Below are positions 7,445 to 21,971 of a DNA stretch of 64,000 nucleotides, one piece after another. How positions within the stretch are numbered: the first letter of the stretch is position 1; every line of letters begins with the position of its first letter. A program made the translations under genes and the position numbers. The notes under the pieces are model-generated. The model worked only from the letters and a program-made list of their open reading frames with translations, ran no database searches and was not told the origin of the DNA. Source of the stretch: an uncultured Actinomycetota bacterium (GTDB lineage Bacteria > Actinomycetota > Actinomycetes > JAHEKZ01); the NCBI GenBank assembly GCA_963829525.1, contig CAWHIJ010000003.1, forward strand, positions 2,496,001 through 2,560,000. Direction: 5' to 3'.

Positions 7445-8656
7445 TCATCTCTCTCGCAACCAAAGGCCGGCCACTGAGGGTTGCATGGTGCGGCTCAGCA
7501 ACGCCAGTAGGTCTTGGGAGACGATATCCGGCTCGACCCGGTCGCGCAGTCGACGGGCGAACGACTGCACTGTCTGCTCTGCGTCATAGCGCGACCGGTT
7601 GAAGCGTCGATCAACGATGGCCCGCGTACGGACGAGCACCGGTCGGAAGGCGGCCGCCGCAGTGAGCGTGGCAACCGCGACGGACATCTGGTTGGGCAGT
7701 TGAAAGAGCGATGTTGCCACAGACACGATTCCGACGTAGACGGCGACAACGACTCCCGTCACTACGGCGTATGACGTTGTACGACTGACGACCTTGTCTA
7801 TGTCGTACAGGCGATGCCGCAGAACCGCGACGGCAATTCCCGCGGGAAGCGCAACTCCGGCCATCGACCACAACAGGCTGCCGTGCAGCACTCCGTCTGC
7901 GCTATTGATCGCGGCCAGTGCCCACTCAGGCAACTGAGCGGCGACCAGGATCAGCAGTGGCCCTGCGAGCCCGCCGGCCGCGACCCACATCACCTGCTGA
8001 CGCTCGAGGCCTTTGGCTCGGTACCAGCGGAGACCAAGGCAAAGTGGGGCGGCGACTAGCCCGAGCGTCACTAATGATCCCAGGCCCGTAAGGAACCCGT
8101 TGACCACCGACGCCACACCTGTCGGCTCGATGCCGGCGTCCTGCTCCTCTCGGAAGATCATCGCGTCGAGGGCCGCACTGACCACGCTGATCGCGGTCAG
8201 CCAGATCACCCACCGCCACCGTCGGGAAAGCGGACGACCCGTTGGCGCCAGCAGCAGGAGCACCACGACTCCCCCCACGAAGAGCACCTGGCAGGCGGAG
8301 GTGCCGGCGTACAACCAGTGCCCCGCTGATTCCGACAAGCTCAACTGGGCACTCGATGCGTCGACGGAACCGAACAGCCCTTGGAGTGCTCCGATCACGC
8401 CCACGACCAGCATCAGTGTGCCTAGCCGATTCCCTCTGTCGCGCGAGACGATCAGGTATCCCATCGCCCCGTAGCTGATTGCGCCGACACCAGTTTCGAG
8501 CCAGGTCTGGAAGGGTTCTGGCACTCCGCTGCGGTATTGCCAACCGGTCAGCAAGCTGGTGACGGTGACGCAACCTACGATCACGATCAAGGCGGTCAAT
8601 GCCGCAGGCGAAGGAACTCCCTCCGACTTCTTCTCCGGACGCGTCGGCGCGTTCAC
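7445..8656 (-). CDS. Multi-pass membrane sensor-like protein, paralog P1
   Basis: Many hydrophobic segments; RHRLYDID, VDRRFNR..YDA, TMQPSVAGLWLR; GTG start overlaps the P2 stop (GTGA). Confidence 0.85.
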   Translation of the reverse strand: MNAPTRPEKKSEGVPSPAALTALIVIVGCVTVTSLLTGWQYRSGVPEPFQTWLETGVGAISYGAMGYLIVSRDRGNRLGTLMLVVGVIGALQGLFGSVDASSAQLSLSESAGHWLYAGTSACQVLFVGGVVVLLLLAPTGRPLSRRWRWVIWLTAISVVSAALDAMIFREEQDAGIEPTGVASVVNGFLTGLGSLVTLGLVAAPLCLGLRWYRAKGLERQQVMWVAAGGLAGPLLILVAAQLPEWALAAINSADGVLHGSLLWSMAGVALPAGIAVAVLRHRLYDIDKVVSRTTSYAVVTGVVVAVYVGIVSVATSLFQLPNQMSVAVATLTAAAAFRPVLVRTRAIVDRRFNRSRYDAEQTVQSFARRLRDRVEPDIVSQDLLALLSRTMQPSVAGLWLRER

Positions 8657-9837
8657 GCCCGTCCTCCGGCAACCCACAGTCCCACACGTGATGGCTGCAG
8701 AGTCTTGTCCAGGATTCCCAGCACCTCTTCGGTGACCACGTCTGTGTCGACCTCGCGGGCAAGACGTTCGCTGAAGGCATGGACCGTGTTCTCTGCGTCA
8801 TATCGCGTCCGGTCAAAGCGACGATCCACCCTGGTCTGAGTCCACCGTAGAGCTGGTCGAAACACCGCGGCTGCCACCAGCGTTGCCAATGCGACCGGAA
8901 GCGTGTCCGAGACAGGCATGACGGCGCTAGCGGCAGCGACGACGACGAGATAGACCACAACCACGAGCGCTGTTACCAAAGCGTAGGACGTCGACCGGCT
9001 GATGATGCGGTCAATGTCATAAAGGTGGTAGCGAAGTATCGCTACCCCCACCGACAACGGGAGCAGCGACAGCACCACTGCCAACAGAACCGTGTCGCTT
9101 GCCGACCAGTTGGTGGACAGGGCCTGCACCATGAAGAGCGCCATCACAACACCTGCAAGAACAAGCCACTTGATCTGAGACTGCTCCCGGACATTCCCGC
9201 GACGGAAACGCACAGCCAGGGACCAGACCGAGAGCGCCATCGCGGCTATGAAACCAAGGGCCAGGAACTCAAGAGACTGGATGAATCCTGCGAGCCAGTC
9301 GGGTGCGTACGGATTTGGCTTCGATAGGCCAGCTGCATCGGTGTACTCCGCGTTTGAGAAGGCCACCACCAAGCTCCACGTCACTGCAACGACACCCGAG
9401 CCCCAGGCCACGGGCCGCCACCGCCGGCTCAGCAGGTGACCATCCGGGAAGAGCAGGAAGGGAAAGGTCAGCATCACACACAAGAACGGCGCCCAGGTCC
9501 AGTTGCCGAACCACTCCGCCGCGATCCCACCGAAGCCGCCAGGCCTCACGACCGTGGCCCAGGCGACGTAGCCATTTACGGCAACGCCAAGAGCAAGCCA
9601 GAGTCCGCATCCAAGGAAGATCCATCCGATGGGGTTGTCTCGACGCTTGGTGGAAATAAGTAGTCCGACGGATCCGATGGCCAGAGCCGGAAGCCCAAGT
9701 GGAAGCGAACTGAGCGTTTCGCTCCACCCCATCGTGCGAGCGTTGATGACTGTCATTGAAGCGCCCACGAGGAGGAGCACCACCGTCAGCATCCAAAGCA
9801 CCCGCGCCAGGACAGTCACCCATCGGGCCCGATTCAT
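8653..9837 (-). CDS. Multi-pass membrane sensor-like protein, paralog P2
   Basis: NPIGW, LLFPDGHLLSRRWR, QIKW, RYHLYDID, TLQPSRVGLW. Confidence 0.87.
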   Translation of the reverse strand: MNRARWVTVLARVLWMLTVVLLLVGASMTVINARTMGWSETLSSLPLGLPALAIGSVGLLISTKRRDNPIGWIFLGCGLWLALGVAVNGYVAWATVVRPGGFGGIAAEWFGNWTWAPFLCVMLTFPFLLFPDGHLLSRRWRPVAWGSGVVAVTWSLVVAFSNAEYTDAAGLSKPNPYAPDWLAGFIQSLEFLALGFIAAMALSVWSLAVRFRRGNVREQSQIKWLVLAGVVMALFMVQALSTNWSASDTVLLAVVLSLLPLSVGVAILRYHLYDIDRIISRSTSYALVTALVVVVYLVVVAAASAVMPVSDTLPVALATLVAAAVFRPALRWTQTRVDRRFDRTRYDAENTVHAFSERLAREVDTDVVTEEVLGILDKTLQPSRVGLWVAGGRA

Positions 9838-11087
9838 ACGTGGCTCATTTCTGTCGACGCGCTCGGCGGCACGCTGGCGCGGTCCTCGGCAGAGGGCACT
9901 AACCCGGCGCGCAGCCAGACACCGACGCCAGCAGGTTGGAATACCAACTGCACGACTGACTCCAGATCGGCCTGGACCACTCCCTCCTCGCTGCTCACCC
10001 GGAGGCGGTCAGCAAACTCTCCTATCGCCAACTCTGCGTCGTAGTGCTCGCGATCGAATCTGCGGTCCACTACTCGACGAACGCGTCTCAGCAGAGGCCG
10101 AAACGCCGCCGCTACGAGCAGCGTTGCCGCCGCGACGACGAGCGGCTGCCTACCGCTCACGAGTTCACTTGCAGTCGCAACCGTCACTGCATAGATGGCG
10201 ATCAACGAGCCGGTGACAAGGACATAGGAAGTGGTGCGGCTAATGATTCGATCGATGTCGTAGAGCCGATAGCGCAAGATCGCCACGCCGCAGGACACAA
10301 CGAAGAATGAGAGGACGAGCACCTCGGCGATTGAAGTGAGCGCTGGGGGGACAAAGCGGCCGAAGGTGGCTTCGAACGCGACGAGAAGGACGATCAGCGC
10401 GACCGCGAAGCCGAACCACCGCATCTGCTCGCGTTCGATCCCTCGCGAACGCCTTACCCGAAGGACCGAGGAGACGATGGACGCCGCCATCCCCGCCAGG
10501 AAAAGCAGGCCAAAGAACCCAGCGAATGCGGAGTCCTCGACGCTAGACACACTGGCCATGAAGGGTGGTGAGAATGGGTTTGGCGCTGACCGGGTGACCT
10601 CACCCGCCGATGAGTACTCCACTCCAACGGTTGGAACCATTGCCGCAACGAGGGTGATTCCCAGGGCGGAGAGCGTCGAGAGCCAGAGGACCGGGCGCCA
10701 TCGTGGGGACAGCAAACCAGATGGGAACAGAAGCAGCGTCACCGTGGTCAACAGGAAGAGCAAGGGGTACCAGGCCCATGCGGAGACCCACGCAGCCAGG
10801 AAACCCCACCAAGGCACTTCACCCGGTACCCGCGTCGCTAATGAAGTGGTCACGACCGCAAGGGACAGCGTTCCCGCCAGGGTGCCAATGCCGAGGAAGA
10901 CCCAACCCATCGGATTGCTTGGTCGCTGACGTGCCACCGAGGCGCCAACCACCGTCTCCGCGGCAACCGGGAAGAGCAGCAGGGGATTCTGCATCTCGCC
11001 AAATGTGAACGCGGCTGAAACGATCCCGATCGCCGCTGTCACCACCATCACCCACCACACGACGCGCAGCCCGACGTGCGCGTTCAT
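9834..11087 (-). CDS. Multi-pass membrane sensor-like protein, paralog P3
   Basis: NPMGW, LLFPSGLLSPRWR, QMRW, RYRLYDID, VFQPAGVGVWL. Confidence 0.87.
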   Translation of the reverse strand: MNAHVGLRVVWWVMVVTAAIGIVSAAFTFGEMQNPLLLFPVAAETVVGASVARQRPSNPMGWVFLGIGTLAGTLSLAVVTTSLATRVPGEVPWWGFLAAWVSAWAWYPLLFLLTTVTLLLFPSGLLSPRWRPVLWLSTLSALGITLVAAMVPTVGVEYSSAGEVTRSAPNPFSPPFMASVSSVEDSAFAGFFGLLFLAGMAASIVSSVLRVRRSRGIEREQMRWFGFAVALIVLLVAFEATFGRFVPPALTSIAEVLVLSFFVVSCGVAILRYRLYDIDRIISRTTSYVLVTGSLIAIYAVTVATASELVSGRQPLVVAAATLLVAAAFRPLLRRVRRVVDRRFDREHYDAELAIGEFADRLRVSSEEGVVQADLESVVQLVFQPAGVGVWLRAGLVPSAEDRASVPPSASTEMSHV

Positions 11088-12301
11088 GGCGTCTGCTCCG
11101 GTATCCAGACCGCCATGCTCGCGGGTTGTACGGTGGCACCGAGCACGGCGAGAAGATCCGAACGCACCTCTTCGCCCTCGACCTCGTCACGAAGCCTGAC
11201 CGCGAAGGCCTCTACTGCGCGCTCGGCATCGAACTGCTCACGGTTGAACCTCCGGTCCACCACCTGACGGGCCCATCGCAACACCGGCCGGAACAACCCG
11301 GCCGCAACCAAAGTCGCAACCGCAACCGCCCACGAGTCTGGCGCTCCCGTCGAACCAGACTCCGGAACCAACTGCGTTAACGACGTGACCACCACCGCAT
11401 AAACCGCCAGCAATACCCCAGTGACCAACGCATACGCCGTCGTCCGACCAATAATCCGATCAATGTCGTACAAGTGGTAGCGAAGAATCGCCACCCCACA
11501 AGTCAACGGAACCAGCATCATGATGAGCGTGAAAGTGACGTCTCCGAGCGCAGAGTCACGGAACCCCGGCGATACACCTCCGATCACCATGTGCAACGGA
11601 ATGAGCAGAATGGCGAACGCGAAGAGTCGCATCTGCAGCCGCTCGACGCCCCGAGACTGCCAGGTGCGCAGCACAACCGACCAGATCGATGCCAGCCCAC
11701 AAGCAACTGCCAGAAGGATCAGCCCCTGAACACCTGGAGAATCCAGCGAAGGGTCCGCTTCAACGATGAATGATGGAGCTAGCGAGTTGCTGACCACAAC
11801 AGCGTTGGCCTCGACACCTACCTCACCGATATCGATCGTCGGTGCCGTCGCAAATGCCAAGGTCAGCAATCCAGTGACCCAGGCAGATAGCCACAGCACC
11901 GGGCGCCATCGCGTCGACTTCAGCCCAGAAGGGTAAAGCAGCAGGCCGAACGTACAAATCAGCATCAATAGGGGCAGCCAGGCCCAGCTGTAGAACCAGC
12001 CGGCCAGCACCACCATGCCTTCGATGGGTGTTCCGGAATCCACGGCCGCCTGGACGACGGCCCCAGAGTCGATGCTGAGAATCAGGAGAAGGCCCACGCA
12101 CATCAAGAGCCAACCAAAGGGGTTCTTCGGCCGACGAAGCGCAATCAGGGCTCCGACACCGACGTAGCTGATAACGGTGAAGAGTAGGAAGAAGTTGTCG
12201 ATGTCGAACGATGGTGGCACCAGAATCTCGACGACGCAGGAGACCCCAGTCGCAGCAAGGATCAGCCACCAGACTCCTCGCTGAACGATTCGCGAACTCA
12301 T
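11084..12301 (-). CDS. Multi-pass membrane sensor-like protein, paralog P4
   Basis: NPFGW, LLYPSGLKSTRWR, RYHLYDID, TVQPASMAVW. Confidence 0.87.
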   Translation of the reverse strand: MSSRIVQRGVWWLILAATGVSCVVEILVPPSFDIDNFFLLFTVISYVGVGALIALRRPKNPFGWLLMCVGLLLILSIDSGAVVQAAVDSGTPIEGMVVLAGWFYSWAWLPLLMLICTFGLLLYPSGLKSTRWRPVLWLSAWVTGLLTLAFATAPTIDIGEVGVEANAVVVSNSLAPSFIVEADPSLDSPGVQGLILLAVACGLASIWSVVLRTWQSRGVERLQMRLFAFAILLIPLHMVIGGVSPGFRDSALGDVTFTLIMMLVPLTCGVAILRYHLYDIDRIIGRTTAYALVTGVLLAVYAVVVTSLTQLVPESGSTGAPDSWAVAVATLVAAGLFRPVLRWARQVVDRRFNREQFDAERAVEAFAVRLRDEVEGEEVRSDLLAVLGATVQPASMAVWIPEQTP

Positions 12302-13491
12302 GACGTCGGCTCCCGAAGCCAGACTGTGGTGCTGGCCGGCTGGACCGTTGCGCGGAGCACGGCCAGGAGGTCAGCACGAACCTGCCCGCTGTCGACCTCA
12401 TCGCGCAACCTCACCGCGAAGGCTTCCACCGCGCGCTCGGCGTCGAACTGCTCACGGTTGAACCTCCGGTCCACCACCCGTCGCGCCCATCGCAACACCG
12501 GCCGGAACAACCCCGCAGCAACCAAGGTGGCCACCGCAACCGCCCACGAGTCAGCCTGCCCCGTCGACCCTGACTCCGGGACCAGACTCGTCAACGACGT
12601 CACGACCGCCGCGTACACAGCCAACAGGACAGCCGTGACCAACGCATACGCCGTCGTCCGACCAATAATCCGATCAATGTCGTACAGGTGGTAGCGAAGA
12701 ATCGCCACCCCACATGCCAGGGGAAGCAACGACAACACCACTGCTAGAAGAACTGTGTCGCTCGATGTCCACTCCGTAAGCAAGGACTGCACCATGAAGA
12801 GAGCCGAGACGAGGCCCGCGAGGATCAGCCACTTGATCTGGGAACGCTCGCGGTATCCACCACCACGGAAACGCAGCACCAACGACCACACCGACAGTCC
12901 CAGGGTAAGGAGAAAGCCAAGAGCGACGAACTCGAGTGCGTCAACGAAATCGCGAAGGGCCTCCGGAGTGTAGGGATTCTGCTTCGGCCGGCCGGCCGCA
13001 TCGGTGTACTGCGTGCTTGAGAACGCAACACTCAGCGTCCAGATGACAGTGACCACCCCTGCGCCCCATGCGACAGGACGCCACCGTGCGTTCAGCAAGT
13101 GACCATCGGGGAAGAGTAAGAAGGGGAAGGTGAGGAACACCGCCAGAAGCGGTGCCCACGGCCAGTTGCCGAACCACTCGGAGGCCGTTCCGCCGAAGCC
13201 ACCAGGCCTCACCACGGTGGCCCAGCCGGTGTATCCGGTATTGGCAATCGCCACTGAGATCCATAGGCCGCAGCCGAGGTAGATCCAACCAATCGCGTTG
13301 TCCGTGCGCCTGGTGGCGATCAGCAAGCCAACAGTTCCCAGGGCAAGAGCAGGCAGACCCAGGGCAATCACGCTCAGCGTGTAACTCGAACCAATCGTGC
13401 CGAAATTGACTATGACGAGAACGCACCCGACGAGAAGCAGAGCGACCAGCAGCGACCACAGACCTCGAGCCAAGTAGGTTGCTCGCCTCAT
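12298..13491 (-). CDS. Multi-pass membrane sensor-like protein, paralog P5
   Basis: NAIGW, LLFPDGHLLNARWR, RYHLYDID, TVQPASTTVWL. Confidence 0.87.
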   Translation of the reverse strand: MRRATYLARGLWSLLVALLLVGCVLVIVNFGTIGSSYTLSVIALGLPALALGTVGLLIATRRTDNAIGWIYLGCGLWISVAIANTGYTGWATVVRPGGFGGTASEWFGNWPWAPLLAVFLTFPFLLFPDGHLLNARWRPVAWGAGVVTVIWTLSVAFSSTQYTDAAGRPKQNPYTPEALRDFVDALEFVALGFLLTLGLSVWSLVLRFRGGGYRERSQIKWLILAGLVSALFMVQSLLTEWTSSDTVLLAVVLSLLPLACGVAILRYHLYDIDRIIGRTTAYALVTAVLLAVYAAVVTSLTSLVPESGSTGQADSWAVAVATLVAAGLFRPVLRWARRVVDRRFNREQFDAERAVEAFAVRLRDEVDSGQVRADLLAVLRATVQPASTTVWLREPTS

Positions 13492-14726
13492 GGCGTGGGC
13501 TCCTTCAACCAGAGGCCAGTAGAGGCCGGTTGCACAGTCGACCCCAGCACCTTCAGCAGGTCCGACCGCACTTCCTCGCCCTCGACCTCGTCGCGAAGCC
13601 TGACTGCAAAGGCTTCCACCGCGCGCTCGGCATCGAACTGCTCACGGTTAAACCTCCGGTCCACCACCCGGCGCGCCCACCGCAATACCGGCCGGAACAA
13701 TCCAGCCGCGACCAACGTGGCCACAGCAACAGCCCACGAGTCCGCTTGTCCTGTCGAACCCGACGCCGGCACCAGACTGGTCAACGACGTCACCACGGCT
13801 ACGTAAACGCCGAGAAGCACGCCCGTAACAAGGACATAGGCAGTGGTCCGTCCAATGATCCGGTCAATGTCGTACAGCCGGTAACGCAGGATCGCCACAC
13901 CACACGAAAGGGGAATGAGCGCGAAGGCAACGGCCAGGAGGACGTAGCGCCCCGTGGAGTGTCCGTGCTCGGCCAAGTACTGAGCGGGCCAAAGAACCAG
14001 GATCAGCAAGGCGATGGCGGCTGCGAAGAGTCGCATCTGTAGGCGTTCAACGCCAGTCGAACGCCAGGTGCGACGTACGGCTGCCCCAACGGCCGCCACG
14101 ACGCACACTGCCATGAGCGAGATGAATACCGGAAAGATGAAGTCAAGGGGTCGGGCGTCCGGACCATCTGGGTGCGCCGACATGACCTGGCCAACGAAGT
14201 TCGGTGACATCGGATTCTCAAGCTCGACCTGAGCAGAACCAGTGCCAGGCAAGTCGACCCATACCGTTGGGGCGGTGACCCCGAGAACGAAGCTGGAAGC
14301 GATCAAGGCCCATGCCAGCCATAGGACGGGCCTCCACCTATGTGAAGGGAGGCCGGAGGGATACAGCAGAAAGGTGACCGCCGTCGAGAGGAGAATCAGA
14401 GGGAACACCAGCGCGATCCCCAACTGCGCCGGGATAGCCACATCGGGACCGTACGGGAGCCCGCCGGCCTGGGCACGCTCCGTCAGGGACAGCAATAGCG
14501 CGGTCAGCGACCCCAGGAGACCTACGAAGAGAAAGACCCAGCCGATCGCGTTGTCTGGGCGCCGATAGGCAATGACGGCACCCACCGGCGCGAAGACCAG
14601 ATAGGCGAGAAAGAGAAGGTCTTCTTCCCCGTAGCCGGGCTGCACAACGGTCTTGACGACCAGAACCACCATGATCGCGGCAAGTACTCCCCACCACACG
14701 GCCCGCTGCAGCCCCAGTCGGTTCAT
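13488..14726 (-). CDS. Multi-pass membrane sensor-like protein, paralog P6
   Basis: NAIGW, LLYPSGLPSHRWR, RYRLYDID, TVQPASTGLWL. Confidence 0.87.
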   Translation of the reverse strand: MNRLGLQRAVWWGVLAAIMVVLVVKTVVQPGYGEEDLLFLAYLVFAPVGAVIAYRRPDNAIGWVFLFVGLLGSLTALLLSLTERAQAGGLPYGPDVAIPAQLGIALVFPLILLSTAVTFLLYPSGLPSHRWRPVLWLAWALIASSFVLGVTAPTVWVDLPGTGSAQVELENPMSPNFVGQVMSAHPDGPDARPLDFIFPVFISLMAVCVVAAVGAAVRRTWRSTGVERLQMRLFAAAIALLILVLWPAQYLAEHGHSTGRYVLLAVAFALIPLSCGVAILRYRLYDIDRIIGRTTAYVLVTGVLLGVYVAVVTSLTSLVPASGSTGQADSWAVAVATLVAAGLFRPVLRWARRVVDRRFNREQFDAERAVEAFAVRLRDEVEGEEVRSDLLKVLGSTVQPASTGLWLKEPTP

Positions 14727-15919
14727 GTGATCGGCTCGCGGGTCCAGAGGGCAAAGGCGCCGGGCTGAACTGTCATCTCGAGAGTCGCAACGAGTTCTTC
14801 TGAGACGACCGCGGGTTGCACCTGGTGTCGCATCCGATCAGCGAACTGTTCCACCGCCATCTGACCGTCATACCTTTGTCGGTTGAAGCGCCGGTCGACG
14901 AAGCCCTGGACGCGCGTGAGAACTGGTCTGAAGAGTGCCGCCGCGGTCAAGGTGGCAACAGCCACAACCGGTCCGTCAGCCGTGTTGGGCAGGAGGCCAG
15001 ATGCGAGTGTGATCACACCCACGTACACCGCGATCAAGGTAAGGCTGACCAGTGCGTACGAGACCGTCCGACTAACGAGGCGATCTAGCTCATAGAGCCG
15101 ATAGCGGCTCACAGCAATACCAATCGCTACGGCAATCGCGTTCATCGGCAGTGCCCACAGGAGGTTCACCAGTCCGAACTGCAGGATCTCGTCAGCGCCG
15201 GTCGGCAGCAGTTCAAGCGTCGCGATGGTGGCCAGTGCCACCGCCACGCCGGCGATGAACCACCGGTACTGCAGCCGAACGATCCCAGTGCTACCCCTCC
15301 AACGAAGGGTCTGGCTGATCAGCGTGGCGAGAACGAGAGTGGGAACAACGAGGAAGCCGGGCCCTTCGATGAACCAGGTGCTAATCCCTTCCAGCATGCT
15401 CACCCGAAGTGGGTTGGGTCGCTCACTGTCGATCAGCCGTGGACCCACCAGGTTGAGGAACGTGATCCACACCGCCAGGGCACACAGGACACGAGACAGC
15501 ACCTTCGCTCCTCGCGTGGCTCCGAACCCCGAGGGGAATGCGATAACCACCCCGATGAGCCCGATCCAGCCGAGCGCCCCGGCGAGCATGCCGGGCATCT
15601 CCAGCAGCACCGGTCCACGCGGCGACGGGCGGAGAAGCAGATCGTGCGTTGCGGTCGTGATCGCCATGCAGGAACCGGTGAAGAGCAGCAGCCGTCCGAC
15701 TGTGTTAGCACGCCGGTGGAGCAGGATCATCATTCCGACGATCGGAAACCCGACCCAGGCGATTCCCCACCACGAGTCGGCCTGAGATGTCGATTCTGAA
15801 GCGTCCGCGAGGCCCAACTCGATGGCGACATTCCAAAGGAAGCCAGAGAGCAGCACTGCCGTGACGACCATCGCGGTCCCGACGAGTGCCGCCCTGCGAT
15901 AGCTCTCCCTCTCGCCCAA
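14723..15919 (-). CDS. Multi-pass membrane sensor-like protein, paralog P7 (start uncertain)
   Basis: NTVGR, AFPSG, QYRW, RYRLYELD, VDRRFNRQRYD, TVQPGAFALW. Confidence 0.83.
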   Translation of the reverse strand: MGERESYRRAALVGTAMVVTAVLLSGFLWNVAIELGLADASESTSQADSWWGIAWVGFPIVGMMILLHRRANTVGRLLLFTGSCMAITTATHDLLLRPSPRGPVLLEMPGMLAGALGWIGLIGVVIAFPSGFGATRGAKVLSRVLCALAVWITFLNLVGPRLIDSERPNPLRVSMLEGISTWFIEGPGFLVVPTLVLATLISQTLRWRGSTGIVRLQYRWFIAGVAVALATIATLELLPTGADEILQFGLVNLLWALPMNAIAVAIGIAVSRYRLYELDRLVSRTVSYALVSLTLIAVYVGVITLASGLLPNTADGPVVAVATLTAAALFRPVLTRVQGFVDRRFNRQRYDGQMAVEQFADRMRHQVQPAVVSEELVATLEMTVQPGAFALWTREPIT

Positions 15920-15929
15920 GGCGGGCCGC

Positions 15930-16676
15930 CTATCCGCTGGACCGCTGCGGACGGAGCATCCTGATCGGGGTCGTGACAATGTGGATCCCGGAACGGATTC
16001 CGGAGTTGTGCCACACGTTCCGCCAGTTCGACCACAACCGCTTGCGGTCGACGCAGATGGTCTCCTCGGACACCTTGGCGTCCACGACGCCGTAGTGCGC
16101 GGCCAAGTTCGTCAGCGTTCCCATCCAGAACTCGTCTTCTTTACGACGAGCCACGGGCCAGGCAAGCTCCCAGATCGGGTCGTTGGGCCTGATCAGAATC
16201 TTGATCTCCACTCGAGTCTCACCGGCGTCCTCCTCCGCGGAGAACGTGATCATGCCCGCGAACATGTGCCCCTCGGGCGTCATGAAGGTGAAAGATTCCT
16301 CGTCGGCGTAGATGACCAAGATCCCCGTGGCCAACTTCGGCCCGTGACTGGCGATACCCACCTCTATCGGCGTCACCGCACCGGGCTCGATCCCCGTCAA
16401 GCTGTTGTGGAACACGCTGCCAGGGGGCCAGTAGTCGCCGAAGTTCACCTTCCAGTCGCCGATGAGCGACTTGGCACCGACCACCGATCCGAGATTCGTC
16501 GAGTACGTGCGTTGCCAAAGCCGGCCGAAGCCCTGCTGTGGACCGGTGACCTTCTTACCGGTGATGTTGTACCCGACCTTTGACTTCTCATCGGGTGCCG
16601 CCAGCCTGTCGACCTTGGTCGCCCAGTTGCCCGCATCGCGCGGACCGACTGGGTCGTTCGTGCCTGGGGTGGTCAT
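15930..16676 (-). CDS. Conserved hypothetical soluble protein
   Basis: Protein-like, Trp-rich 248-aa ORF (GPQQGFGRLWQRTY, FTFMTPEGHMFAGMITF) with GAGGAG RBS, tightly packed in the operon. Confidence 0.75.
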   Translation of the reverse strand: MTTPGTNDPVGPRDAGNWATKVDRLAAPDEKSKVGYNITGKKVTGPQQGFGRLWQRTYSTNLGSVVGAKSLIGDWKVNFGDYWPPGSVFHNSLTGIEPGAVTPIEVGIASHGPKLATGILVIYADEESFTFMTPEGHMFAGMITFSAEEDAGETRVEIKILIRPNDPIWELAWPVARRKEDEFWMGTLTNLAAHYGVVDAKVSEETICVDRKRLWSNWRNVWHNSGIRSGIHIVTTPIRMLRPQRSSG

Positions 16677-16688
16677 CGCTTCTCCTCG

Positions 16689-17039
16689 TTACGCACTTGC
16701 GAGCGCGGTAGCAGCATCTGCGTGCAGTGCGATCGCCTCGTCGAGGCGGGTCAGCTCAAAGATCTGCCGGTAGTGATCGGTGAGGCCAACGGCAGCCAGC
16801 TTCTGCTGCTGACGGTTGGCGCGTACGAGCAAAGTGACGAGCATGCCGATTCCGCCACTGTTCATGTATGTGAGCCCAGTGAAGTCGAGGACGAGGAAGC
16901 GCGTTCCCGGGGCACAGGCCTCGTCGTACGCCGACATCAAAACCGGCTCGCACGCCGCGGTCACATCACCTGCGATCTCGATGACTGCTGTTCCGGCCTC
17001 GGGGAAGTGCACCGTCATGCTGACCTGTGGTTCTGACAT
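16689..17039 (-). CDS. STAS-domain anti-anti-sigma-factor-like protein
   Basis: LVLDFTGLTYMNSGGIGMLV with phospho-Ser position; IFELTRLD. Confidence 0.92.
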   Translation of the reverse strand: MSEPQVSMTVHFPEAGTAVIEIAGDVTAACEPVLMSAYDEACAPGTRFLVLDFTGLTYMNSGGIGMLVTLLVRANRQQQKLAAVGLTDHYRQIFELTRLDEAIALHADAATALASA

Positions 17040-17058
17040 GAGTTTCGTCCTTTCGCCG

Positions 17059-17409
17059 TTATGCGGTGGTGGCGCCGACCGCGGCGTCAACGTCGGAGAA
17101 GACCTGGATGAAGTCGGACAAGCGAGTGATGTCGAAGATGTGGCGGTAGTGCTCTGTGAGTCCAGACGCGTGGACCGCCCGCTTCTCGGCTCGCGCTCGC
17201 CCCAGCAGACTCACGATCAGCGCGATGCCCGTGGAGTTGATGTAGTCGACCGCATCGAAGTCCAGGACGACGGTCGCCGGGCTCGACAAAGCTGCCGTGT
17301 CGTAAGCCGCGGCGAGCAGCCCCGATGCGTCACGGTCGATCTGTCCGGTGAGGACAATCACCGCAGTCTCCGGGTCATGGCGGACGACGACTTCATATTC
17401 TGTTGTCAT
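17059..17409 (-). CDS. STAS-domain anti-anti-sigma-factor-like protein
   Basis: VVLDFDAVDYINSTGIALIV; IFDITRL; ATGA overlap with upstream gene. Confidence 0.92.
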   Translation of the reverse strand: MTTEYEVVVRHDPETAVIVLTGQIDRDASGLLAAAYDTAALSSPATVVLDFDAVDYINSTGIALIVSLLGRARAEKRAVHASGLTEHYRHIFDITRLSDFIQVFSDVDAAVGATTA

Positions 17410-19097
17410 GACGTGGCTCCGTCCTTCTCGGCTGGGTCAGCCGCTGATGGATCGACGTTGAGGACCAGCCGAACGGTGTGCCGCTCTTCCCTGGTGTGCT
17501 CTTCGCACTCGTCGACCATGTTCTCGATGAGGAACAGTCCCCATCCACGCGTTGTCTGCAGGCCCGCCAACTTCAGCTCGAGGTCGGGGGTGTCGGCGAC
17601 GGCGTCCTCGCCCCGTCCGCCGAGGTCGCTGATCTCGACAGCGATCCCCCGCGCGGTACGCAAGACCACCACGTCAACCGGAAGCTCGGCGCGATTGTGG
17701 TTGCCGTGCTCGATGGCATTCATCGCCGCCTCCGCGGAGGCCGTCTTGATGCGCTCGAGCTGGTCGGTGCTGAGCCCACTGTCTGCGACGATCTCGGCCA
17801 CTCGCGCTAGTACGAGCCGCTCATTCCCCGGTTCGCTGGGAACCGAGAACCTGGAGAGCACCTCCTCAGCCTCTGGTTGGGCCGGTCGAGCGGCTGCGCT
17901 CCGTTCCAGCGTCACCAGCGTGACGTCGTCCTCCTGCTCCAGGCCGCCGGAGAAGCGCTCCAACGTCGACACACATGCGTCAACGAGGGCGGGGCCGGAC
18001 TCCGCTTGCCCTACAAGGTCTTGGGTTCGGTCGAAGCCAAACATCTCGCCGTCATCGTTGTGTTGCTCCGTGATGCCATCGCTATAGAGCAGCAGGACCT
18101 CTCCTGGGTTGATGACCGCCTGCACCTCGTCGTAGGAACTCTCCGGCATCAGGCCAAGGGGCATTCCAGTCGCTCGCAGCTCGCGGACTCCGTCTCGACC
18201 CCGCACGAACGGCAAGTTGTGGCCGGCATTGGCCAACTGCACCTCGCCCGTGTCACGGTCGAAGACCAGCACCAGACAGGTCACAAACATGTGCGCTGGG
18301 ATGTCGGTGCAGAGCAGCTCGTTGACCCGTCCCAGAACCGCCGCAGGAGAGATGAGCCGCGGGCCGGCCTCGCGCAACAAGGCGTGGGTGCTGGCCATCA
18401 CCAGGGCCGCTGGCACACCTTTGTCCGTCACATCACCGGTGACCACCATGATGCGTCCGTCAGGAAGTTCCATGACGTCGTAGAAGTCCCCACCAACGGT
18501 GCGCGCCGGCAGATAGAAGGCTGACAGGTCCCAACCGGCCAAGTTCGGCAACGACTGCGGAAGGAACTGCTGCTGGATCAGCTGTGCGACGCGAAGCTCT
18601 TGCTCGATGCGCTCACGAACTCTCGCTTCGCCTTGCTGCTGACGTACCATCTGCCCAAGCCGCAGGGCCGGAGCGGCATACCGAGCGAGGGTGTCGAGAA
18701 GTCGTCGGTCGTCATGGGAGTACCCGCGCTCCGACAGGCGTTGGCCTAGCGCCAGCAGCCCCACCATTTCTCCCGAGGCAACGAGCGGTACGACCAGCTC
18801 GACGCCCGACTCGCGCATGTCGATGACGGCGGGTGAGTCTTGCGGCAGCGTCGTCACGTCCACCGGCCCTGACGCTCCCTGGAGGAAGGCCAGGACTGGG
18901 TCGTTGGGTGCGATGTCCAGGGTGAGGGTCTCGGTCTTCGAGGTGGCCAGCTCAACGGTCGGAGCCACCTCATCTGTGGCGCGGGGCCGGCGCCACCAGC
19001 GCCTGGTTCCGGCCGTCCCCTGTGCGGCCGGAGCCGGCGACGTGGAACCCTCGGGCCGATCCTCAGCCAGAGTCCGGGGCCGCGACGTCGAGCTCAA
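17406..19097 (-). CDS. Partial-GAF + SpoIIE/RsbU-type PP2C phosphatase + RsbW-like HATPase kinase fusion (start uncertain, TTG 19097 or frameshifted GTG 19110)
   Basis: PP2C motifs GGDFYD, GDVTDKG, NAGH, YSDGITE, EDDVT; GHKL motifs EAAMNAIEHG, SDLG, GWGLFLI; GAF-type tail VVPLVASGEMVGLLALG...YSHDDRRLLDTLA. Confidence 0.92.
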   Translation of the reverse strand: MSSTSRPRTLAEDRPEGSTSPAPAAQGTAGTRRWWRRPRATDEVAPTVELATSKTETLTLDIAPNDPVLAFLQGASGPVDVTTLPQDSPAVIDMRESGVELVVPLVASGEMVGLLALGQRLSERGYSHDDRRLLDTLARYAAPALRLGQMVRQQQGEARVRERIEQELRVAQLIQQQFLPQSLPNLAGWDLSAFYLPARTVGGDFYDVMELPDGRIMVVTGDVTDKGVPAALVMASTHALLREAGPRLISPAAVLGRVNELLCTDIPAHMFVTCLVLVFDRDTGEVQLANAGHNLPFVRGRDGVRELRATGMPLGLMPESSYDEVQAVINPGEVLLLYSDGITEQHNDDGEMFGFDRTQDLVGQAESGPALVDACVSTLERFSGGLEQEDDVTLVTLERSAAARPAQPEAEEVLSRFSVPSEPGNERLVLARVAEIVADSGLSTDQLERIKTASAEAAMNAIEHGNHNRAELPVDVVVLRTARGIAVEISDLGGRGEDAVADTPDLELKLAGLQTTRGWGLFLIENMVDECEEHTREERHTVRLVLNVDPSAADPAEKDGATS

Positions 19098-19185
19098 GTG
19101 GCTGAACCACTTCGCCTCCTGGTGCTGTGCCCCCTTGCGGGGTCGGACCTTCGTACGGCTCGAGCATCGCGCACCTCCCGTTCCG

Positions 19186-19249
19186 AAAGCGTTACGGCAA
19201 CGGCCCACTTTGAAGAGTTTGGACGCTAGCGCAGTTAAAAGCGTTACGG
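19186..19249. promoter_or_regulatory. 12-bp direct repeat in the divergent promoter region
   Basis: aaagcgttacgg at 19186-19197 and 19238-19249. Confidence 0.6.
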
Positions 19250-19256
19250 TTCCGGC

Positions 19257-21971
19257 GTGAACGAACTCAGGCTGCGGCTGTTCGGCGCCCCCGAGCTCTC
19301 GGTGGCAGGATCCCCGATCACCTTCGACACCCGCAAGGCTGTTGCGCTCATTGCCTACCTGGCGGTCACCGGCCGCCCACAGCGCCGCGAGAGCCTGGCC
19401 GCCCTCCTGTGGCCCGAGTCCGAACAGGGACGCGCCAGGGCGTCGCTGCGCCGAACTCTCTCAGCAGCTGCTGGGGCTGGTCCGGCTCTGATGATCCGTC
19501 GCGGAGAGATCGAGCTCGACACGAAGCAGATCTGGTGCGACGTGGCAGAGTTCGAGGCCCTTGCCTCCAGCGACAGGGCGTCTGCGCTCAGGCAGGCAGC
19601 AGCGTTGGCACCCGAATCCTTTCTCGCCGGGTTCACGTTGCGTGACAGCGCCGAGTTCGACGACTGGACGGCCACCACCGGCGATCGGCTGCGCGAACGC
19701 TTGGTCACGGTGTTGTCACGCGTTGCAGACATCGAAGCCTCCGCTGGCCAGCTCGACGATGCCATCGAAGCTGCCCGTCGGTGGGTCGACCTCGACCCGC
19801 TGAGTGAGGGAGCTCATCGTGCACTCATGCGGCTGTACACCTGGGCTGGTGAGCGTCCGACGGCGCTCAAGCAGTACCGCCAATGTGTTCGCAACCTTGA
19901 CCGAGAACTCGGTGTTGCGCCGCTGCCGGAGACGACTGAGCTCTACGACGACATTCGGGCCAACCGCCTCGATCCCCCGCTTCGGTCGACGACCACGACG
20001 GAGCGTCTCGACCCGCCACCTGCGGGAAGGGTCGCGCTGCCTTCCGCCCAAGTTGTTGCGGGCAGGGATGAAGACTCCGATGCGCTCGAAGCAGCGTGGC
20101 GGTCGGCTTCCCAAGAGGGGGCGAGCGCACTTCTCGTTGGCGCACCGGGGCTCGGACGTACCACGCTTTCGGCTCAACTTCGCAGAAACGTTGAGGACGC
20201 TGGCGGTGCAGCCATCTCACTGCGTGGCCATGCGGCCGAACTGGGACTCGCCTACGCAACGGTCATCGATCTCACGAGGGCACTTTCCGAACGCGACTCA
20301 GAAGTTGCCGATTCCCTGGGCGCCGTCGGCCAGGCTGTCGAGTCACCGGGTGAGCGCGCCCGGCTGTTTGACCTCGTGCGCGATGCCGCCAGCCGGGCAT
20401 TGCGCGGCCCAGTTGCCGGCCTCTTGGTCGTCGACGATGCCCATTGGCTCGACCCCACCTCGTCCGACCTCCTGGGTTACCTACTGCGAAGGCCGCCGGC
20501 TGGGGTGCTGGTGCTTGCGACCCTGCAGAGCGAGGCCTTCGAAGGCTCTACCCTCGATGAGATCGCGACCGTGGTGACTCTGAAGGAGTGGGATACCGAA
20601 CAGACGCGGGAGGCGCTCGTCGCACTCGACGCAGAATCCATCGACCCAACCGAGGCCCATCGGCGCACAGGTGGCAACCCTCGCCTCCTGACCGAGTACG
20701 TCCTGGCCTCTCGCGAAGTCGGTGGCTCTCCCTCAGGTCCGTTCCACGAGCTGGTTGGCGCGCGCTTGAACGCCGCACCAGCCGCCACCCGCCAGACCCT
20801 GGGGTCCACTGCCGTCCTTGGGACCGTGGCTGATCCAGACCTCATTCGGCAGGTAAGTGGGCGCGATGAGGTCGAGACCGTCCAGGCCCTTGAGGACGCC
20901 GTGGCCCGCGGTCTGCTCGTCGAGGATCCCGAACAACATGGATACGACTTCCCGCACGACGCCCTGCGCAACATGGTCATCGAGCGTGTCGGTCTCGCTC
21001 GCCTCCGCCTGCTCCACGGTCGCGCAGCGGACGCGCTCGTGCGGCAGCCTGCCGTCGATGGCGGGGGTGCCCCTGCTGGTCGTGTTGCCCGGCATCTTGC
21101 CCTCGCAGGCCGAGAGCCGGAGGCACGGGACTGGTACTGGATCGCCGCGCAGCAGTCCATCACCCTCTACGCACATCGCGAGGCCCTCGAGCACCTTCGG
21201 TCGGCACTCGCACTCGGTCACGACCCGGCCGTCAACCACGCGGCGACCGGTGACGCGCTTACCTCGCTGGGCCGGTACGACGATGCCCTCACCGCATACG
21301 AGGCGGCGGCAGCTGCAATCGGAGTCGATGACCCGAACCAGCTGGCCGTGGTCGAACACAAGCTGGCCGAGGTGCACGACCGCCTCGGTGACTGGGACGT
21401 GGCCCGCGCGCACCTGGAAAGCGCCGCCGAGCTGCTCGAGCCCAAGGGTGGTCTGGCCATGCGGGCGCAGGTCGCCGCCGACCTAGCCCTGGTGAGTTAC
21501 CGGCAGGGTGACCCAGGCGCAGAGAGGATCGGCGGGCAGGCACTGCACCTCGCGGTGGAGAGTGGCGATGCAGTCTCGATGTCACAGGCCAAGAACGTCC
21601 TAGGGGTACTGGCTTGCGCCAGAGGCGACTGCGACACAGCCGTCGGCTACCTCCAGGAGAGCAGGGACCAAGCGCACGTTGCCGGCAGCACCGAGCTCGA
21701 GGTGGCAGCACTGAACAACCTTGCGCGGTTACACGCGCAGGAAGGCGACCTCGACAAGGCCCTCGAATCAGCTCAAGCGGCCCTGCAGCTCGGACTTGCT
21801 CAAGGAGATCTGCACAGGGCGGCAGCTCTGCACGATCACGTCGCCGACCTCTATCACCGAGCAGGCAGAAATACAGATGCCATGGAGCACCTCAAAGCGG
21901 CCGCCTCGGCCTTCGGGGCGGTCGACGAGGCGCGGGTACGCCCCGAGGTGTGGAAGTTGGTGTCCTGGTAG
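19257..21971 (+). CDS. SARP/AfsR-like regulator: wHTH-BTAD + AAA ATPase + TPR
   Basis: LRLFG...RKAVALIAYLA...LAALLWP; LDPLSEGAHRALMRLY...ELGVAP BTAD; GAPGLGRT and VVDDAHW; TGGNP; TPR-like helices. Confidence 0.9.
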   Translation: MNELRLRLFGAPELSVAGSPITFDTRKAVALIAYLAVTGRPQRRESLAALLWPESEQGRARASLRRTLSAAAGAGPALMIRRGEIELDTKQIWCDVAEFEALASSDRASALRQAAALAPESFLAGFTLRDSAEFDDWTATTGDRLRERLVTVLSRVADIEASAGQLDDAIEAARRWVDLDPLSEGAHRALMRLYTWAGERPTALKQYRQCVRNLDRELGVAPLPETTELYDDIRANRLDPPLRSTTTTERLDPPPAGRVALPSAQVVAGRDEDSDALEAAWRSASQEGASALLVGAPGLGRTTLSAQLRRNVEDAGGAAISLRGHAAELGLAYATVIDLTRALSERDSEVADSLGAVGQAVESPGERARLFDLVRDAASRALRGPVAGLLVVDDAHWLDPTSSDLLGYLLRRPPAGVLVLATLQSEAFEGSTLDEIATVVTLKEWDTEQTREALVALDAESIDPTEAHRRTGGNPRLLTEYVLASREVGGSPSGPFHELVGARLNAAPAATRQTLGSTAVLGTVADPDLIRQVSGRDEVETVQALEDAVARGLLVEDPEQHGYDFPHDALRNMVIERVGLARLRLLHGRAADALVRQPAVDGGGAPAGRVARHLALAGREPEARDWYWIAAQQSITLYAHREALEHLRSALALGHDPAVNHAATGDALTSLGRYDDALTAYEAAAAAIGVDDPNQLAVVEHKLAEVHDRLGDWDVARAHLESAAELLEPKGGLAMRAQVAADLALVSYRQGDPGAERIGGQALHLAVESGDAVSMSQAKNVLGVLACARGDCDTAVGYLQESRDQAHVAGSTELEVAALNNLARLHAQEGDLDKALESAQAALQLGLAQGDLHRAAALHDHVADLYHRAGRNTDAMEHLKAAASAFGAVDEARVRPEVWKLVSW

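Follow-up and report, generated by a model that had tools for sequence, protein, structure and literature searches.

The window analysed here, a stretch of 64,000 nucleotides (nt) from an uncultured Actinomycetota bacterium (assembly GCA_963829525.1, contig CAWHIJ010000003.1, positions 2,496,001 to 2,560,000), carries 11 minus-strand genes packed head to tail at 7445-19208, most neighbours overlapping by 4 nt. In the order of transcription, the first encodes a soluble enzyme with PP2C phosphatase and HATPase kinase domains, the next two encode STAS proteins, the fourth a DUF1990-like protein, and the remaining seven are membrane paralogs. The best explanation of this locus is a naturally split receptor, consisting of a transmembrane domain, a GAF domain, a PP2C phosphatase and an RsbW-like kinase, whose gene has been cut inside the GAF domain. 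The reading that we favour, and that we consider probable on the strength of sequence comparisons and structure models taken together, is that the tails of the membrane paralogs complete the split GAF domain of the enzyme in trans, with many sensors wired to one output.

The evidence for the fission comes from homologs in which both parts are found in a single chain. A search for longer relatives of the paralogs found P0010, a protein of 910 amino acids (aa) with GAF, SpoIIE and HATPase_c_2 domains. In BLASTP comparisons the paralog, up to its last residue, aligned with residues 51-393 of P0010, and the enzyme, from residue 99, aligned with residues 402-897 (54% identity over 496 residues). 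When 1.84 billion cluster representatives were scanned with P0010 using HMMER, 67 of the best 150 matches spanned the junction in one aligned stretch. A fused gene was also found within a STAS-STAS-DUF1990-like cassette, in locus L010, where it reads ...VSVWLRDQTKVGAEALADIAPNDP... in one open reading frame (ORF). The junction was aligned in 53 of the 67 spanning representatives, the 14 others having no GAF-end motif and being left out; two further alignments comprise 48 of the fused proteins (A2) and one paralog per locus from 53 loci together with the seven of the window (A3). Between 'QP....WL' and 'I..DDP' the fused proteins have about 0 to 45 unconserved residues, and the window proteins are cut exactly at that variable segment. 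The GAF profiles of Pfam are covered nearly end to end in the fused forms (L010 378-500 matches GAF_3 1-127 of 129; P0157 371-491 matches PF01590 3-133 of 133) and in the kinase relative P0015 (PF01590 2-132 of 133). In the enzyme of the window they match with their C-terminal part only (GAF_3 84-127 of 129, PF01590 82-133 of 133, the third model 91-135 of 136), and neither the enzyme nor the paralogs gave a whole-profile match in one chain to PF01590, PF13185 or PF13492. A fission inside the GAF domain, in the variable loop that follows strand beta1, is well supported by these comparisons. An earlier reading of the ORFs and their translations alone (hereafter the sequence-only reading) had already placed the split inside a GAF domain, had expected fused homologs from which the split point could be mapped, and had proposed comparing GAF profiles on the separate and joined parts; on these points it was borne out by P0010, L010 and the other spanning representatives, and by profile matches that are whole only in fused forms.

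The sensor region of L010 (216 residues) was modelled with AlphaFold2 (AF2) from a 49-row alignment, and gave a mean predicted local distance difference test score (pLDDT) of 89.4, the sole weak block being a 10-residue stretch at the split loop (mean 63). The order of elements in this model is two helices, a tryptophan (Trp)-bearing strand at 55-59, a loop, a helix, a short strand, a helix, a hairpin at 112-128 and a long helix at 139-189. In a Foldseek search against the PDB the top matches were all GAF domains (phytochrome, PDE2A, PDE5A, KdpD, Lcd1 and others), with E-values down to 1.8e-6, a probability of 1.00 and query-normalised template-modelling scores (TMq) of 0.44-0.57 among the top 13 listed. 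The antiparallel sheet flanked by N- and C-terminal helices that characterises the GAF fold was thus found in the sensor region of the fused homolog; for the two chains of the window it was found in the docking model only. According to the fused model, the tail would contribute two helices followed by strand beta1, with the remainder of the GAF domain coming from the enzyme.

The seven paralogs are 394-418 aa long and 29-33% identical to the first of them, and most of their invariant columns fall in the tail (V361, D362, R363, R364, F365, R367, D371, F379, R382, Q405, P406 and W412 in the numbering of the first paralog). The VDRRF motif lies exactly 51 residues ahead of the last Trp in all seven, and this Trp is followed by 4, 6, 6, 6, 6, 6 and 26 residues. 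The common tail motif given by the sequence-only reading is present in all seven, although its exact wording fails in places, paralog 1 having YDG for YDA and RMR for RLR, and paralog 6 having RLA. The same reading had described proteins that stop a few to about 25 residues past the Trp without any output domain, in agreement with these counts and with a Pfam scan of the seven paralogs, in which no family, GAF included, exceeded its cut-off. The AF2 model of paralog 2 (pLDDT 86.5) has about 10 helices across the membrane, a beta hairpin (residues 154-170) separating helix 5 from helix 6, and a last helix that continues into the tail; its final 15 residues, 398-412, which include beta1, are modelled as coil with a pLDDT of 64-69. 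A fold search of the membrane domain in the PDB gave no convincing match, the best being G-protein-coupled receptors with a TMq of 0.32 or less and a root-mean-square deviation of about 8-12 Å. The HisKA_7TM family (PF16927) scored 17.3 bits in one of the seven paralogs, under its gathering cut-off of 28.6, and a few database relatives bear a precomputed match to it. The 5TMR/S-component-like receptors (PMC11109136) were considered and not used, as they were not shown to be the family of the paralogs. Membership in the PrsK family (TIGR02916) was rejected as well, one paralog reaching 17.3 and the enzyme 19.1 bits against a curated cut-off of 300, so that PrsK is a resemblance only. These matches, both far under the cut-off, fall at model positions 4-346 for the paralog and 409-461 for the enzyme, and hint at one interrupted architecture. 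Some single ORFs of about 780-980 aa (P0001-P0005; L058:14072-17011) carry two tandem membrane modules, and in P0001 the first of the two tails has no Trp; they may be fusions of neighbouring paralogs or gene-call errors.

The association of the two halves was modelled with enzyme residues 60-245 (87-row alignment) and the tail of paralog 2, residues 345-412 (60-row alignment). Three runs gave an interaction prediction score from aligned errors (ipSAE) of 0.68, 0.67 and 0.68, and the best of three controls scored 0.00; the mark used for this score was reached by 58 of 80 solved complexes and by 2 of 110 mismatched pairs, a calibration that is rough here given the custom alignments. The runs have at least 96% of their contacts in common, with a partner pLDDT of at least 73. 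As the sequence-only reading had supposed, the tail is predicted to dock on the half-GAF, and to do so by strand pairing: the contacts of lowest predicted error join tail residues 400-407 in antiparallel orientation to enzyme residues 149-155, the last GAF strand of the enzyme, while the tail helices lie on the GAF C-terminal helix, an arrangement like that of the fused model. The predicted interface of the enzyme comprises residues 92-99, 134-136, 142, 148-159 and 163-190. The enzyme piece, which had a pLDDT of 68 with the tail, reached 47-48 when unrelated partners took its place, and the tail, at 73-74 with the enzyme, reached 45 with an unrelated chain. The drop of the enzyme piece is only a hint, from modelling, on the question of whether the half-GAF folds alone.

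We therefore propose, by analogy with RsbU, that the tail completes the GAF domain of the enzyme and signals into its linker. In RsbU (PMC12143880), a partner that binds the N-terminal region together with the linker brings order to a helical linker and activates a PP2C dimer, and helical linkers are given a role in RsbU-type phosphatases. In the proposed mechanism, each paralog would keep the membrane domain and, of the GAF domain, a helix into which the last membrane helix runs without a break, another helix, and strand beta1 with the conserved Trp at its end, and the soluble enzyme would keep the other GAF strands and helices, the helical linker, the phosphatase and the kinase. Strand beta1 of the tail would insert beside the last GAF strand of the enzyme and the tail helices would pack on the GAF C-terminal helix, such that two chains would together restore a whole GAF domain at the membrane. 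Changes of state in the membrane domain could then be relayed along the unbroken last helix and via the restored GAF domain to the linker, and the linker would set the balance of phosphatase versus kinase activity on the two STAS proteins. Physical docking is what we infer from the models, and it may be constant or signal-dependent.

In order to see how widely the two gene types occur together, we compared 80 loci encoding relatives of the enzyme, taken from species-representative genomes (Nanopelagicales-like and other Actinomycetes, Thermoleophilia, Gaiellales, Acidimicrobiia and Chloroflexota) and scored with a hidden Markov model (HMM) of the seven paralogs. A near-full membrane-module gene is present in 65 of the 80 loci, and in 46 of the 48 with at least 5 kb on both sides, which agrees with the co-occurrence anticipated by the sequence-only reading; among the other 15 loci, most are truncated on one flank or the other. 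The arrays hold up to 8 scored copies (nine matches in L013), almost always on the strand of the enzyme gene, and are placed in two ways: either directly upstream of the enzyme gene, the last stop codon lying 40-200 nt before the conserved enzyme start, or, as in the window, downstream of it and after the STAS and DUF1990-like genes. The cassette itself is conserved, with a DUF1990-like gene within 4 kb of the enzyme gene in 70 of the 71 loci having at least 1.5 kb downstream, and STAS matches in the same 71 loci numbering two in 57, one in 12 and none in 2. A truly fused gene was found in only one of the 80 loci (L010). Beyond these loci, the soluble half-GAF enzyme family has 1495 matches at E <= 0.001 and the stand-alone paralog family at least 4867 at E <= 1e-5; the best 120 stand-alone paralogs are about 240-420 aa long (most 385-420) and nearly all are called hypothetical.

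These loci also bear on two explanations that fit the data poorly. The first, which puts the split down to errors in assembly or gene calling, or to decaying pseudogenes, could draw on the 1-nt indel in the leader of the window's enzyme relative to related genes (described below) and on the fact that many of the comparison records are metagenome bins. It seems extremely improbable, given that the same split is seen in 64 of the 65 loci with a membrane gene, across many assemblies, that the ORFs are intact with close homologs 87-97% identical, and that all 11 tails of this genome end cleanly. The second, very improbable as well, is a union of the halves in cis, either through recoding (frameshift or readthrough) or through a DNA rearrangement that brings one paralog in front of the enzyme gene. 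The last paralog and the enzyme do share a frame with a single stop codon between them in 11 of the 43 upstream-type junctions printed, and tail DNA is repeated along the array. However, in most upstream-type loci the frames differ, and in the window the array lies downstream of the enzyme gene, behind three same-strand genes, where neither recoding nor simple recombination could fuse the two. Moreover, in upstream-type loci the enzyme gene has its own Shine-Dalgarno-like AAGGG(A/G)G and an ATG after the stop codon of the last paralog, and the enzymes (junctions L011-L076) begin with a conserved basic N-terminus, M..LTRTFRRV.GR, in place of which the leader in the window has RRWWRRPR. These start signals and the conserved N-terminus, which may be a membrane-binding or docking motif, indicate that the split is a real pair of cistrons.

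HMM searches over all six-frame ORFs of the 2.96-Mb assembly revealed 11 tails, each of them closing its ORF, and a single half-GAF that reached significance (E 2.6e-45; next best 0.028). The sequence-only reading had counted seven sensors, which is correct for the array and too low for the genome. The same searches found no fused form, hence this genome holds no protein of the family with a whole GAF domain in one chain. With 11 tails and one half-GAF, the diverged sensors would share or compete for a single enzyme, and many inputs would converge on one partner-switching output.

It could be argued that the tails dock as predicted but that the paralogs are anchors, scaffolds or competing sinks that carry no ligand-specific input. 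This we regard as unlikely, even though the docking evidence would be identical, the paralogs have no recognisable ligand-binding domain, their membrane domain is without a convincing solved relative, and the basic cluster of the enzyme leader could itself favour the membrane. The N-terminal parts of the paralogs have diverged strongly (22-37% identity in most pairs) and their docking ends have been kept or homogenised, a pattern that fits diversified inputs with a common output, and relatives in which the same membrane domain is fused to a GAF domain and a histidine kinase have the architecture of a sensor. The homogenisation is clearest in paralog 3, whose sensing part is like that of paralog 6 (67% aa identity), whereas its last helices and tail are like those of paralogs 2 and 4 (87% aa identity). 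Third-codon identity in this tail region is 49-65% between paralog 3 and paralogs 2 and 4, compared with roughly 30-40% in most other comparisons. Such mosaic paralogs suggest that docking ends were exchanged or homogenised between copies, and point to recombination or gene conversion of the docking end.

Completion of the GAF domain in trans has also to be weighed against the alternative that the split genes are relics whose products no longer meet: the half-GAF would be self-sufficient, perhaps aided by the leader, and the paralogs would act alone or with another partner through their helical tail. Several observations weigh against docking, some of which are what such a relic would lead one to expect. 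The soluble half-GAF phosphatases form the very large family noted above and have their own start signals. Two of the 48 well-flanked loci (L008 and L026) have no membrane paralog within 10 kb, and 4 of the 11 paralogs of this genome lie far from the enzyme gene (G000:C3:190952-192205, 2873250-2875819 and 1454982-1456550; L081-L083), with the same tail, two of them having tyrosine for the conserved Trp. Covariation between the halves was assessed by mutual information with average product correction, over 78 tail columns and 101 half-GAF columns in 243 split and 71 fused pairs (effective number about 119); in these few and related sequences the predicted interface was not enriched, with 2 of the top 10, 3 of 20, 6 of 30, 10 of 50 and 16 of 100 pairs having both residues there, against a background of 18%, although one of the top 10 pairs (tail 405, enzyme 151) is a predicted contact. 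The docking score is a measure of model confidence, and a split fold may pass by its likeness to solved GAF domains. The leader insertion in the window's enzyme gene makes the N-terminus of the enzyme, and possibly its expression, uncertain, with only the unconserved leader affected. Finally, at least 19 switches between fused and split were counted on an unrooted tree, built rapidly with FastTree, of 177 half-GAF and PP2C segments (106 split and 71 fused, after dropping incomplete N-termini and segments under 300 residues), compared with a mean of 55.6 and a minimum of 47 changes in 500 label shuffles. Part of these changes may be gene-call error in metagenome data, and some of the split rows that stand alone within fused clades may come from truncated gene calls.

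Nevertheless, we judge the relic to be quite unlikely. Per-column conservation in the stand-alone tails (241 distinct) follows that of the fused tails (71) with r 0.84, the corresponding value for the half-GAF being 0.70. Within the paralogs, conservation is highest in the tail and last helices, where it amounts to 2.7-2.9 bits per column, the sensor part having 1.8-1.9. Synteny is tight across two phyla; the isolated tail strand is unstructured in the model of the whole paralog; and docking is predicted with clean controls. On the tree, split forms group into large clades that enclose a few fused forms (P0010/P0157/P0179, L010, P0166/P0198), even if this unrooted tree gives no direction of fission versus fusion. 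Trans-completion is accordingly the reading we retain. A stronger version of it, which we find plausible and hold only tentatively, is that the diverged sensors form a library, with 11 members here and arrays of up to 8-9 elsewhere, which completes the fold of a shared enzyme in a reversible way, with folding on binding as the signalling step and the sensors in competition.

The catalytic domains of the enzyme are clearly assigned. The SpoIIE match (PF07228) covers residues 249-436 with E 2e-49 and 168.6 bits against a cut-off of 25, and the HATPase_c_2 match covers residues 457-582 with E 1.7e-20 and 73.8 bits against a cut-off of 27.4. The SpoIIAB and RsbW equivalog models gave 36.5 and 28.7 against cut-offs of 135 and 145, far too low to call the kinase SpoIIAB or RsbW itself, and we assign it to the HATPase_c_2 domain family only. 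Asp columns D241, D244, D259, D377, D427 and D428, candidates for the metal-binding aspartates, are invariant in 87 aligned homologs. The enzyme has two hydrophobic 19-residue windows only, and since these lie within the GAF hairpin and the PP2C core, it has no membrane segment, as the sequence-only reading had noted. The leaders of homologs differ in sequence and length, and conservation starts about 4 residues before DIAPNDP. Close relatives begin with MLEPYEG... at an ATG equivalent to 19166, behind GGGAGG, and this frame (MLEPYEG...VVQPLELD...) is the start used by homologs such as P0037; the window has a G near 19075 that its close relatives L001 and L002 lack, and this puts the 19166 ATG out of frame. 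The ORF start at 19208 is therefore doubtful. The additional G is either a genuine frameshift in the leader or an assembly indel; it leaves the half-GAF and the catalytic domains intact.

Both STAS proteins belong to PF01740 (48.6 and 48.5 bits against a cut-off of 22.6) and read ...YINSTGIA... and ...YMNSGGIG..., with a serine that we take to lie at the phosphorylation loop. The DUF1990-like protein scored 21.8 bits against the PF09348 cut-off of 23, just below it. Its nearest Atlas clusters are hypothetical or DUF1990 (10% of the members of the nearest cluster carry DUF1990), and no sequence relative was found in the PDB (best E 0.16, antibody chains). Because no sigma factor gene was noted beside the cassette, this conserved protein may be the regulated target, and we put it forward as a candidate. 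A 904-aa protein with BTAD, AAA_16 and TPR domains, an AfsR/SARP-like regulator, is encoded divergently at 19257-21971 (+). The coordinates of all features are collected in the table.

Features of the split-receptor cassette (positions in the window)
Feature	Position	Strand	Description
Soluble enzyme ORF	17406..19208	-	600 aa as listed, true start uncertain; leader, half-GAF, helical linker, PP2C (SpoIIE), HATPase_c_2 (RsbW-like kinase)
Low-complexity leader	18939..19208	-	basic cluster RRWWRRPR; 1-nt insertion near 19075 relative to close relatives
Half-GAF, about residues 91-185	18654..18938	-	short strand TLTLDI, helix, strand, helix, beta hairpin VELVVPLVASGEMVGLLALG, C-terminal helix; order taken from the fused model
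Helical linker, GAF C-terminal helix to PP2C	18465..18653	-	one continuous helix at fragment residues 139-189 in the fused model
PP2C/SpoIIE phosphatase domain	17901..18464	-	PF07228 profile 1-191 of 192
HATPase_c_2 domain (anti-sigma-factor-type serine kinase)	17463..17840	-	PF13581 profile 2-126 of 127
STAS protein 1	17059..17409	-	116 aa; PF01740 E 7.4e-13; 4-nt overlap with the enzyme gene
STAS protein 2	16689..17090	-	133 aa; PF01740 E 8.2e-13
DUF1990-like protein	15930..16676	-	248 aa; conserved fourth cassette gene
Membrane paralog 1	14723..15979	-	418 aa as listed; tail 14726-14899
Membrane paralog 2	13488..14726	-	412 aa; tail 13491-13664; paralog chosen for models
Membrane paralog 3	12298..13491	-	397 aa; tail 12301-12474; mosaic with paralogs 6 and 2/4
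Membrane paralog 4	11084..12301	-	405 aa; tail 11087-11260
Membrane paralog 5	9834..11087	-	417 aa; tail 9837-10070; 26 residues after the Trp
Membrane paralog 6	8653..9837	-	394 aa; tail 8656-8829
Membrane paralog 7	7445..8677	-	410 aa as listed; tail 7448-7615

In regards to known systems, the closest are the fused receptors (P0010, P0157, P0160 and L010), which have the same membrane module, the DRRF...QP....W tail, the GAF remainder, the linker and the enzyme, with HATPase_c_2 present or not. They differ in having the GAF domain in one chain, with a variable loop where the window proteins are cut, and one sensor per enzyme, whereas this genome has 11 sensors and one enzyme. The membrane GAF histidine kinases (P0012, P0015 and many matches of 722-756 aa) share the module and the tail and continue into a whole GAF domain, HisKA_3 and HATPase_c, but their output is a histidine kinase and they are likewise made as one chain. 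A functional likeness exists to the stressosome of Bacillus subtilis (the RsbR, RsbS, RsbT, RsbU pathway), in which the RsbR paralog set combines varied sensing ends with a common output end leading to one PP2C that acts on a STAS protein. Domain scans of the 11 genes found no RsbT, no RsbS and no RsbU N-terminal four-helix domain; membership in the stressosome was rejected on this ground, and the comparison is a functional analogy only. The two also differ in that the sensors of the window are integral membrane proteins, that the kinase is fused to the phosphatase, and that the contact in the stressosome is the binding of a folded kinase, while the one proposed here would insert a strand and so complete a fold. 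In the donor-strand complementation of pilus subunits and in engineered split proteins, which are structural assemblies or laboratory constructs, a second polypeptide provides the strand that is missing, and engineered split phytochrome reporters have their cut between the PAS and GAF domains and are not known to be cut inside the GAF domain. GAF-regulated PP2C phosphatases of partner switching include RsbZ of C. difficile, OsaC of S. coelicolor and Rv1364c of M. tuberculosis (PMC12143880). Compared by that description only, they share with the window's system a sensor domain, a helical linker and a PP2C domain, and Rv1364c also a fused anti-sigma-type kinase, but they have a complete GAF or PAS domain in one soluble chain. 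In the full text of open-access papers and preprints we found no description of a natural split GAF domain in bacterial signalling, and likewise none of the fused form.

Signalling domains are usually taken to be indivisible, and many-to-one wiring to depend on phosphotransfer or on folded adaptors of the RsbT kind. In the present case the cut runs through a loop of a GAF domain, the two halves have stayed adjacent in two phyla, and one of them has multiplied into arrays. Reassembly of the halves, if it takes place, would make this a natural example of fold complementation serving to integrate signals, and recombination between the sensing and docking ends would, if the proposed wiring is true, let new inputs evolve without touching the output. 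If the halves do not meet, the locus is still a clear and widespread case of gene fission inside a domain. The system is a variant of the membrane GAF-PP2C partner-switching receptors and, should docking hold, would represent a new principle of receptor assembly. The system also offers a 68-residue tail and a soluble enzyme with which the transfer of signals from GAF domains to linkers and PP2C could be studied. A large unannotated family of membrane proteins, most of whose relatives are called hypothetical, would gain a role, and the conserved DUF1990-like gene would become tied to partner switching.

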